From NCBI GenBank assembly GCA_963840935.1, contig CAWJAS010000001.1, forward strand, positions 192,875 to 256,874: a stretch of 64,000 bases of DNA. Direction: 5' to 3'. This document shows positions 49,564-50,487 of the stretch, in pieces. A program made the position numbers and the translations under genes. Below the pieces are notes generated by a model. The model had not been told where the DNA came from. It saw only the letters and a program-made list of their open reading frames with translations, and did not search any database. Numbering within the stretch: the first letter of the stretch is position 1; the number at the start of each line of letters is the position of its first letter. Source of the DNA: Candidatus Magasanikiibacteriota bacterium. Lineage in GTDB: Bacteria > Patescibacteriota > Patescibacteriia > Magasanikbacterales > GWA2-37-8.

Positions 49564-50487
49564 ATGCCTGAATTGCCTGAAGTGGAGACAATAAAACGGC
49601 AATTGCGAAAAGAAATAACCGGAAAAAAAATAGCCGGCGTTTTGGTGCTAGCCGATAAAACTTTGAAAATGCCGAAGGCGCGGTTTATAAAAAATGTTGT
49701 CGGCGCGAAAGTAAAAAGCGTGCAAAGGCGCGCCAAGCTTTTGATTTGGAATTTGAATAATGATTGGTCGATTTTAACCCATCTAAAAATGACGGGGCAG
49801 TATGTTATTAACATATCGCGCCAGGATTTGTCATTGCGAGGATCCGCCAATTGGCGGAGACGCGGCAATCTATTGTCGCGGTCGCGTGTCATTCTGAACG
49901 AAGTGGAGCGAAGTGAAGAATCTTTTGTCGCGTACAAACACACGCGTGTTGTTTTTTCTTTTGGTTCAAAATTAAAGATAATGTTTAATGACATGCGCCG
50001 GTTTGGGTATTTGAAATTATTTGAAACAAAAGATTTGCCGAAGTTTTTAGACGAGGAATACGGTCCGGAACCGCTTGATAAAAAATTTACTTTGAAAAAA
50101 TTTGAAGAAGTTTTGAAACGCCGGCCGAATATGAAAATAAAACAGCTTTTGATGGAACAAAAACTGATTGCTGGAGTGGGGAATATTTACGCGCAGGAAG
50201 CGTGTTTTATGGCGCGAGTTTTGCCGACGAGGTCGGCGAAGAGTTTGAAGCCAATTGAACACAAAAAAATATTTAATAGTTTTAGAAAAGTTATGAGCGA
50301 AGCGATAAAATATGGAGGCAGTTCATCAGAAAATTATTTGAATTTATACGGCAAACAGGGCGACTTTGTAAAACGGCTCAAGGTATACGGTCGGGCAAAA
50401 CAAAAATGCCGGCGGTGTGGTGGCGTGCTCAAAACGATTAGATTGGGTGGTCGAGGCACTGTTTACTGTGGAAAGTGCCAGAAGTAG
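49564..50487 (+). CDS. mutM: Formamidopyrimidine-DNA glycosylase (Fpg/MutM) carrying an in-frame insertion of about 35 aa
   Basis: MPELPEVET catalytic N-terminus (real start ATG at 49564). C-terminal zinc finger CRRCGGVLKTIRLGGRGTVYCGKCQ. Inserted segment DLSLRGSANWRRRGNLLSRSRVILNEVERSEESFV is absent from canonical Fpg. Confidence 0.85.
   Translation: MPELPEVETIKRQLRKEITGKKIAGVLVLADKTLKMPKARFIKNVVGAKVKSVQRRAKLLIWNLNNDWSILTHLKMTGQYVINISRQDLSLRGSANWRRRGNLLSRSRVILNEVERSEESFVAYKHTRVVFSFGSKLKIMFNDMRRFGYLKLFETKDLPKFLDEEYGPEPLDKKFTLKKFEEVLKRRPNMKIKQLLMEQKLIAGVGNIYAQEACFMARVLPTRSAKSLKPIEHKKIFNSFRKVMSEAIKYGGSSSENYLNLYGKQGDFVKRLKVYGRAKQKCRRCGGVLKTIRLGGRGTVYCGKCQK
49826..49932. repeat. In-frame GC-rich palindromic repeat-element insertion within fpg
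   Basis: ttgtcattgcgaggatccgccaattggcggag...gtcattctgaacgaagtggagcgaagtgaagaatctttt. Homologous, with module rearrangement, to the element in tsaD. Confidence 0.55.

Follow-up and report, generated by a model that had tools for sequence, protein, structure and literature searches.

The essential genes fpg (mutM) and tsaD, located on a 64-kb stretch of DNA from the tiny-genome bacterium Candidatus Magasanikiibacteriota (contig CAWJAS010000001.1, positions 192,875 to 256,874), contain extra in-frame segments. This whole stretch is referred to here as the window, and coordinates follow its numbering unless another contig is named. The extra segments in Fpg and TsaD are probably hairpin repeats of the CGTC/TGTC-tagged repetitive extragenic palindromic (REP) type, to which dRS3/NTS, the Ssn-related motifs (SRM) and the Rickettsia palindromic elements RPE-4 and RPE-6 belong, inserted in surface loops and translated into disordered peptide. 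What was observed directly is the anatomy of the elements, the constraint acting on them at the DNA level, polymorphism at identical sites, the family resemblance, the wide distribution and the placement in low-confidence loops. The original prediction, made from the letters of the window, had likened the Fpg segment to the translated Rickettsia palindromic elements. This reading is right, and RPE-4 and RPE-6 fall in the same CGTC/TGTC-tagged superfamily (PMC3733652). The phenomenon has already been described in other phyla; it is found here in a new lineage, with a nested hairpin that is unexplained.

The fpg gene (49564-50487, + strand) encodes a protein of 307 aa, which is intact except for the insert. 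It matches the Pfam families Fapy_DNA_glyco, H2TH and zf-FPG and aligns with solved Fpg chains. The N-terminal MPELPEVE sequence, the HLKMTG and RRFG motifs and the four zinc-finger Cys are conserved. Residues 1-82 align with residues 1-82 of the solved structures and residues 125-306 with residues 91-270, leaving about 34 surplus residues between HLKMTG and RRFG, where a segment absent from canonical Fpg had been predicted. Alignment with orthologs placed the boundaries of the composite insert at 49807-49935 (+). With the closest insert-free alleles (L004 and L005), BLASTN alignments break off at 49806 and restart at 49936, and the 129 nt (43 codons) of the insert stand against 18 nt (6 codons) encoding YDGExH in these alleles. 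The insert is GC-rich, as had been noticed, with 51% GC compared to 40% in the remaining fpg. The predicted translation gives the insert-encoded peptide stretches SLRGSANWRRRGNL and RVILNEVERSEES. Inserts in Fpg and TsaD vary in size from 36 to 129 nt and are always in frame and stop-free. In each composite insert, the frame in use is the only one of the three forward frames that lacks stops, which is the residue expected from selection against disrupted alleles.

The repeated unit, or module, is composed of an unpaired TGTC tag, a stem starting with A-T, a variable loop, the complementary stem and then a C. The original prediction had described modules of the form ttgtcat...ga(a/g)gatctttt. 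Such modules do recur: the pattern TGTCATYSYGA-N10-32-RSRATCT has 4 matches in the window and 0 in 100 shuffles. The proposed 3' end is not general, as fpg module 1 ends with ...GGCAATCT and not with GAAGATC. All four window modules are intragenic, two in fpg and two in tsaD, and are confined to 1.7 kb. They share the TGTC tag, the AT-start stem and the C tail, which reads CT(T/A). Module 1 of fpg (49829-49871, +) combines the TGTC tag with an ATTGC/GCAAT stem, an enlarged loop and a CT tail, and its single-stranded DNA fold has an energy of -9.6 kcal/mol (z = -2.2). Module 2 (49887-49923, +) is placed head-to-tail with module 1 and has the TGTC tag, an ATTCT/AGAAT stem and a loop of the GCGAAG type. 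Stems covary among copies and orthologs with complementarity kept (ATTGC/GCAAT, ATTCT/AGAAT, ATCCT/AGGAT and ATTCCCGC/GCGGGAAT). Module loops are enlarged here and often contain a second small hairpin. The hairpin ATCCGCCAATTGGCGGAG, which had been noticed in one fpg module, is indeed present, and hairpins of the form TCCGCC-N3-6-GGCGGA occur 4 times in the window against 0.01 expected. A de novo scan of the window for GC islands was not selective for modules. A scan for perfect hairpins returned mostly terminators, site 1 of TsaD (see below) being the only other GC-rich intragenic palindrome of this kind. A pseudo-module, GTCATTTTTAGATGGGTTAAAATC (49770-49793, -), is made by the conserved ILTHLKMT codons and lies 13 nt from the fpg insertion point, a hint that these codons may have served as the insertion target.

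The second gene, tsaD (51100-52248, -), is intact and encodes 382 aa (Pfam TsaD, 1e-84). The protein aligns with solved TsaD chains, with the exception of residues 245-275, which are unmatched and correspond to about 28 surplus residues. This in-frame insert, at site 3 (51424-51516, -), is an inverted module dimer with the tags pointing outward, for which the single-stranded DNA fold reaches -18.8 kcal/mol (z = -4.05). Module A (51426-51461, +) has an ATCCT/AGGAT stem carrying a nested hairpin (51435-51454) and folds with -9.5 kcal/mol (z = -3.5). Module B (51479-51513, -) has an ATTCT/AGAAT stem and a GAGCGAAGCGAC loop. Both are in frame and one is inverted, in agreement with the original prediction. 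At the same site, only one module, with an ATTCC stem, is present in L001, and L002 and L004 have TGTCATTCCCGCGAAGGCGGGAATCCAG. Comparison of the window with L001, L002, L004 and L006 revealed three polymorphic TsaD sites. The in-frame insert at site 1 (TPPLLNKERAGVRF; 52006-52050, -; 36 nt net) belongs to a different palindrome family (CCCTCTCCTTAWTAAGGAGAGGG) with a 10-bp perfect stem (fold z = -3.0); it is present in the window and in L002 and missing from L001, L004 and L006. Site 2 contains no TGTCAT module in the window (13 residues here, compared to 4 in L001) and is occupied by TGTCATTGCGAGGAGGCCAAAGGCCGACGTGGCAATCT in L002, L004 and L006 (L004 variant: TGCAATTGC...). Across 40 homologs, TsaD measures between 331 and 441 aa and the number of variable sites is at least four; the inserted peptides are typical repeat translations (VIPxxAG..., CHxE..., ...RNDK/RDDK).

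In a protein search, many relatives were found besides an identical Fpg, which is encoded on a 770,905-bp contig (NCBI/ENA). The lineage is placed near Candidatus Magasanikbacteria (Patescibacteria). The DNA of six relatives was retrieved for comparison. Uninterrupted orthologs exist: insert-free Fpg alleles (about 270 aa, with YVYDGExHKHTR; P0004-P0009 and others) are 70-87% identical to the window protein. Alleles filled at exactly the same position (P0002, P0003, P0010 and P0012) show 70-83% identity to it. L001 and L002 have the same fpg layout as the window, namely module 1, spacer and module 2. L006 has module 1 alone, and in L007 this site is taken by a different module, with the stem ATTCCCGC/GCGGGAAT. 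The orthologous copies of module 1 in L001, L002 and L006 hold other loop hairpins, and its loops across orthologs are ATCCGCCAATTGGCGGAG, AGCGAGGAACGAGCG, AGCCCCGAAGGGGCG or a 37-nt version. The copies of module 2 in L001 and L002 have identical ends and differing loops. In a neighbour-joining tree computed with the insert columns removed, the filled Fpg alleles are not monophyletic, although this short tree has no resampling support and gives an indication only. An assembly artefact is made less likely by the filled P0003 allele, which was recovered in separate assemblies of a JGI sample and of Logan samples.

Conservation within the inserts is found in the DNA. At module-end positions, the window and L001 are identical at 49 of 50 nucleotides (~98%), whereas their fpg genes are 82% identical; at this background the probability of such a match is about 6e-4 (binomial estimate). 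The modules are read in different frames, as GTC ATT CTG (VIL) in fpg and TGT CAT TCT (CHS) in tsaD, where one copy is moreover inverted. The original prediction had held that an extra segment conserved in amino-acid sequence among orthologs would be a lineage-specific domain. In the orthologs that have the segment, it is the hairpin ends that are kept at the DNA level and not the peptide. Because frames and orientations vary, the ends are ~98% kept and relatives at 70-87% identity lack the insert or carry variants, the modules are, on sequence grounds, DNA repeats and not a protein domain. L005 is 93-100% identical to the window over the 3' end of dnaE and the intergenic region and ~80% identical within fpg, a mosaic pattern that points to allele exchange by recombination. 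A recombination breakpoint at the insert itself was considered and rejected, as the identity falls near the start of fpg, at ~49574, and not at 49807.

Structure models were computed with AlphaFold2 and assessed by the predicted local distance difference test (pLDDT). For Fpg (21 sequences), the core is confident, and residues 86-123 have a pLDDT below 50 and no secondary structure, between the strands 78-84 and 127-132. The insert would thus sit at the tip of a β-hairpin of the N-terminal domain. Judging from known Fpg structures, this tip would face away from the DNA. The TsaD model (40 sequences) has a mean pLDDT of 88.5. Confidence drops at three places only (residues 71-80, 131-140 and 251-270), which are the variable sites. 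Values at the TsaD inserts are 53-65 (53-57 for residues 251-270), and the remaining model is confident. In both models the inserts are therefore predicted as low-confidence segments between confident core elements.

Further copies, as expected of a repeat family, occupy other genes with differing frames and orientations; they are also present between the genes of relatives and in at least 120 viral or metagenomic contigs. The ATTCT-type module (TGTCATTCTGA-N8-38-GAAGAATC) has at least 120 matches in viral contigs, where a single contig contains up to 6 copies; among the matches listed, about one third of the copies lie inside long open reading frames (ORFs). Again among the matches listed, GTCAT hairpins occur near the Fpg genes of Komeilibacteria, other Patescibacteria, Omnitrophota and Alphaproteobacteria, in relatives with at most 41% identity. 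L001 alone contains 8 module copies in 8.9 kb. Between its fpg and tsaD genes, at 5949-7406, lies a diversity-generating retroelement (bAvd and reverse transcriptase). Two TGTCAT modules are contained in the reverse-transcriptase ORF of this element, and the intergenic DNA around it has more.

A link with small nucleases is seen in the metagenomic contigs L298 and L274, which encode single-domain GIY-YIG ORFs (Pfam PF01541). On either side of these ORFs stand module dimers with outward-facing tags, of the ATTCT, ATCCT and ATTGC types, and some of the modules contain the nested hairpin. The same motif-gene-motif layout is reported in the Ssn paper (PMC11893778). A separate family of 90-aa GIY-YIG proteins is common in the Candidate Phyla Radiation (CPR), with 65-85% identity across many CPR groups. 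Its genes adjoin tRNA genes and are bracketed by GGGACGCTNAGCGTCCCAC hairpins. Members are found in L006 (4111-4377, -), directly upstream of tsaD, and in L128 (2501-2773), and a lone GGGACGCTNAGCGTCCCAC hairpin remnant follows tRNA-Met in L002 (~6995-7015). The L006 gene was considered as a partner of the TGTCAT modules and is not an obvious one: it belongs to the 90-aa CPR family, has its own hairpin and lies beside tRNA genes.

The apex of fpg module 1 is formed by a nested hairpin of 20 nt, GATCCGCCAATTGGCGGAGA (49841-49860, +). The corresponding 20-mer, GATCCGCCARTTGGCGGAGA, is common to fpg module 1 and tsaD module A, where the two copies are 95% identical and the surrounding stems differ. 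It has at least 120 matches in metagenome contigs for a chance expectation estimated at ~2, usually at hairpin tips. Among 114 distinct contexts, 40 are GTCAT...ATC modules with many different stems and 27 are other hairpins with a flanking stem of at least 4 bp; in a shuffled-partner control, ~6% have flanking stems that long. The 20-mer also occurs in REP loops with at least 7 different stems, in other palindromes, and in the D- and anticodon loops of degenerate tRNA copies beside GIY-YIG genes. It is conceivable, if doubtful, that the 20-mer is itself a mobile unit, copied specifically into the apical loops of existing hairpins. Alternatively, it may be a loop variant spread by conversion. 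Were it mobile, insertion directed at loops, with single-stranded DNA as the substrate, would generate nested hairpins across CPR genomes and lengthen the loops of essential proteins as a by-product. As far as the searchable literature goes, a nested 20-mer at hairpin tips is undescribed.

A small hairpin of the TCCGCC kind is also found in a tRNA context. A 5' fragment of tRNA-Met, located in the tRNA-Met leader (52329-52397, -), is a copy of the first 27 nt in which the D-loop is replaced by TCCGCCAGCCGGCGGA (52367-52382). The same fragment in L001 (~8575-8660) has a different D-loop insert of 30 nt. The window fragment has the acceptor-stem sequence of L002 and L004, which suggests part-replacement of an older tRNA copy. 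In L241 (~6400-7180), a GIY-YIG gene is inserted beside a tRNA of which the 3' part is duplicated, and an upstream degenerate tRNA has both its D-loop and its anticodon loop replaced by small hairpins, one of them ATCCGCCAGCTGGCGGAC.

In the explanation that we favour, modules would have landed in codons for surface loops, at the tip of the Fpg β-hairpin and in inter-helix loops of TsaD, and only in-frame, stop-free copies in permissive loops would survive in a gene-dense genome. Copies would spread in trans through single-stranded DNA hairpin intermediates, by the action of an Ssn-type small GIY-YIG nuclease encoded elsewhere. Filled and empty alleles would then be swapped between lineages by homologous recombination. 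Several observations weigh against this explanation. The outer stems in the window are 5 bp long and the loops 12-25 nt with a nested hairpin, compared to 8-9 bp and 4-5 nt in CGTC-tagged REPs. The published SRM pattern, HGTCWYN(0-2)YYVSBRHN(0-5)WNVSBRGN(0-2)RNCYNB, has 0 matches in the window (2 in L001 and 1 in L002). No GIY-YIG gene or remnant was detected in the 64-kb window by regular expression, phmmer or tblastn, and the 770,905-bp contig holds none of the 120 relatives listed for one GIY-YIG query; any mobilising enzyme of this genome is thus hypothetical. The filled-versus-empty junctions in fpg and tsaD showed no target-site duplication. A GTCGCG repeat flanking fpg module 2 was tried as such a duplication and rejected, as it is also present in L006, which is devoid of that module. 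The copy number is low, with 4 modules per 64 kb within 1.7 kb, and copies may be few in the genome as a whole. With nearest-neighbour DNA parameters, the folds of two of the four modules are no better than those of shuffled sequence. Finally, translation of the inserts is an assumption.

A different origin would be local: hairpins could arise and spread by template switching at quasi-palindromes or by short-patch gene conversion, with filled and empty alleles moving by homologous recombination. The clustering of all four TCCGCC-N3-4-GGCGGA hairpins within 2.9 kb, with none elsewhere in the 64 kb, fits such a process. So do the near identity of the 20-mers of fpg module 1 and tsaD module A despite their differing stems, the other mini-hairpins in orthologous loops, the mosaic identity between L005 and the window, the filled alleles that are not monophyletic and the missing target-site duplications. 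We nevertheless consider local spread rather unlikely as the explanation, since it accounts neither for the conserved unpaired TGTC tag and C tail, nor for identical module types in at least 120 unrelated contigs, nor for the module dimers flanking GIY-YIG genes. It could moreover run alongside transposition without replacing it. The hairpins could also be kept for a function, either as sites limiting the recombination tracts of incoming single-stranded DNA, the role reported for NTS and SsnA in Neisseria, or as mRNA structure. Pili and competence genes are common in CPR bacteria (PMC12455944), module ends are far better conserved than the host gene and the same sites are filled in many lineages. 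However, no compensation is apparent in the close relatives that are without inserts, relatives differ freely in whether a site is filled and with which module type, and just 2% of NTS copies are intragenic in N. meningitidis. In addition, the drop in identity between L005 and the window falls near the start of fpg and not at the insert, and the 64-kb window of this genome contains no ssn gene. Retention for function is therefore improbable.

Selection on the protein would be expected if the insert were a lineage-specific loop extension or small domain of Fpg. P0002, P0003 and P0010 carry inserts at the same site with recognisable SLRG...RRGNL...RVILN...SEES motifs, and the frame is always maintained. 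The conserved parts are nonetheless the hairpin ends, synonymous positions included, while the peptide between them varies in length and sequence. In tsaD the same DNA is translated in a different frame and from the opposite strand, AlphaFold2 gives no confident structure for the segment, and insert-free alleles are equally close or closer to the window protein. A protein domain is thus very unlikely. Least credible of all is an assembly artefact or the mark of a dead gene. The window does come from a metagenome-assembled contig, and the nearby dnaE has an in-frame TAA; however, homologous filled alleles exist in independent ENA, JGI and Logan assemblies, every insert is a multiple of 3 nt with no stop codons, and the signature residues of Fpg and TsaD are all intact.

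Other structured elements lie close to these genes. A branched hairpin of 150 nt separates dnaE from fpg (49386-49535, +) and has TCCGCCTTCGGCGGA (49470-49484) at one apex; its single-stranded DNA fold is -43.5 kcal/mol (z = -7.65). It is kept in L002, L004 and L005, with one compensatory pair and a wholly different yet self-complementary apical arm, and could be a structured RNA or DNA element. It is not a TGTCAT module. The original prediction had counted related copies here and in the tRNA fragment, but only the small TCCGCC hairpin is shared and neither place contains the module. Copies had also been expected in a 17.7-kb ncRNA region, which is probably the GC-rich stretch at 17730-18000 overlapping a weak ORF (17723-18133); no TGTCAT module was found there. 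Two further GC-rich stretches (65-68%, ~160-180 nt) lie just after tRNA-Glu at 55262-55418 and 55470-55646, both ending with ...GGGGTCCCTTTGGGA...GGGGCTACTATA. No Rfam family matches the modules, the dnaE-fpg hairpin, the 17.7-kb region or the 55.3-55.6-kb repeats. The dnaE gene is split by a single in-frame TAA at 46299-46301 (…ARAI*KENNY…) into ORFs 45861-46301 and 46362-49382, and in relatives it forms one ORF of 1166-1186 aa. The TAA may result from a sequencing or assembly error or from a recent nonsense mutation, or it may be recoded. Between fpg and tsaD, a 22-nt inverted repeat (50659-50680 and 50934-50955, 77% complementary) surrounds a 70-aa hydrophobic ORF. Relatives have unrelated ORFs of 155-203 aa at this place, so the fpg-tsaD spacer is variable.

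The CGTC-REP/SRM family, with its habit of in-frame insertion in housekeeping genes, is hereby extended to the CPR. The original prediction had called such a family in a CPR-like genome notable. The lineage is new, but in-frame REP insertion had already been described and the word was too strong. The 331-441 aa range of TsaD among close relatives indicates that such inserts are common in the CPR, which affects annotation and marker-gene phylogenomics (e.g. with TsaD). Many spurious 'hypothetical protein' translations also come from these repeats. Together, the filled, empty and variant alleles constitute a natural dataset on hairpin movement and on the role of Ssn-type GIY-YIG nucleases, a question left open in 2013 (PMC3733652) and partly addressed in 2025 (PMC11893778).

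CGTC-tagged REPs have an unpaired CGTC tag (often TGTC), 8-9 bp stems that nearly always start with A-T, 4-5 nt loops and a short unpaired tail with the consensus CCA, and they frequently form dimers (Di Nocera et al. 2013, PMC3733652). Neisseria dRS3 and R. conorii RPE-6 are CGTC-1 elements, and RPE-4 is CGTC-4 (PMC3733652). For the window modules, the link to RPE-4 and RPE-6 is taken from that statement and not from an aligned RPE sequence. Intragenic copies were reported, many of them in genes for replication and repair; as dimers they encode 20-30 aa. A dedicated transposase was not found (PMC3733652). The window modules share the tag (TGTC), the A-T-start stems, a tail starting with C, the dimers and the in-frame intragenic copies. 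Their tail reads CT(T/A), compared to CCAG in L001 and L002. At the TsaD site, these two relatives have the canonical CGTC-REP geometry, with an 8-bp stem and a 4-nt GAAG loop. The fpg pair is head-to-tail, an arrangement that the CGTC-REP paper calls negligible, and Patescibacteria/CPR are not among the five host phyla of that paper (PMC3733652); the copy number in the window is low.

The dRS3 repeat was extended to a 28-nt NTS, CGTCATTCCCGCGMAVGCGGGAATCYRG, which the 94-aa GIY-YIG nuclease SsnA binds and cuts solely as single-stranded DNA (Nat Commun 2025, PMC11893778). Nucleotides 5' of the NTS palindrome are needed for cutting and the C after it for binding (PMC11893778). The window modules likewise have GTC before the palindrome and C right after it, and TGTCATTCCCGCGAAGGCGGGAATCCAG, at TsaD site 3 of L002 and L004, matches the Neisseria NTS at 27/28 positions. 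All four window copies are intragenic, in contrast to the 2% reported for NTS in N. meningitidis (PMC11893778). Genes homologous to ssn are commonly flanked by SRMs, and Rickettsia and Wolbachia are among the motif-rich genomes (PMC11893778). The repeats flanking the GIY-YIG genes of L298 and L274 fail the published SRM pattern, as do the window modules.

With Rickettsia palindromic elements, the window inserts share in-frame insertion in conserved genes, absence from some orthologs and, in the models, a location in a low-confidence loop that leaves the fold intact. RPE-1, attributed to Ogata et al. in 2000, is reportedly a palindromic repeat found in frame in conserved genes, with a presence that varies among orthologs, and its insert is said to sit on the protein surface without destroying function. 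It is longer (~100-150 bp) and belongs to a different sequence family. Expression of RPE-1-decorated proteins has been reported in Rickettsia. GTAG-tagged REPs with their RAYT enzymes, and BIME clusters, are short tagged hairpins, often in dimers, for which a single-stranded DNA hairpin mechanism has been proposed, with a dedicated small enzyme flanked by its own repeats. They differ from the present modules by the tag, GTAG and not CGTC/TGTC, and by the enzyme, a Y1 HUH transposase and not a GIY-YIG nuclease; no RAYT was seen here. Miniature inverted-repeat transposable elements (e.g. Correia, Nezha) are small, non-autonomous structured repeats in or beside genes, with terminal inverted repeats matching insertion sequences and with target-site duplications, neither of which was found for the window inserts. 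Because the tag, the AT-start stems and the C are present but the stems are short, the loops long and the SRM pattern failed, the window copies are best classified, from their sequence features, as divergent members of the CGTC/TGTC-tagged REP superfamily and not as canonical SRMs.

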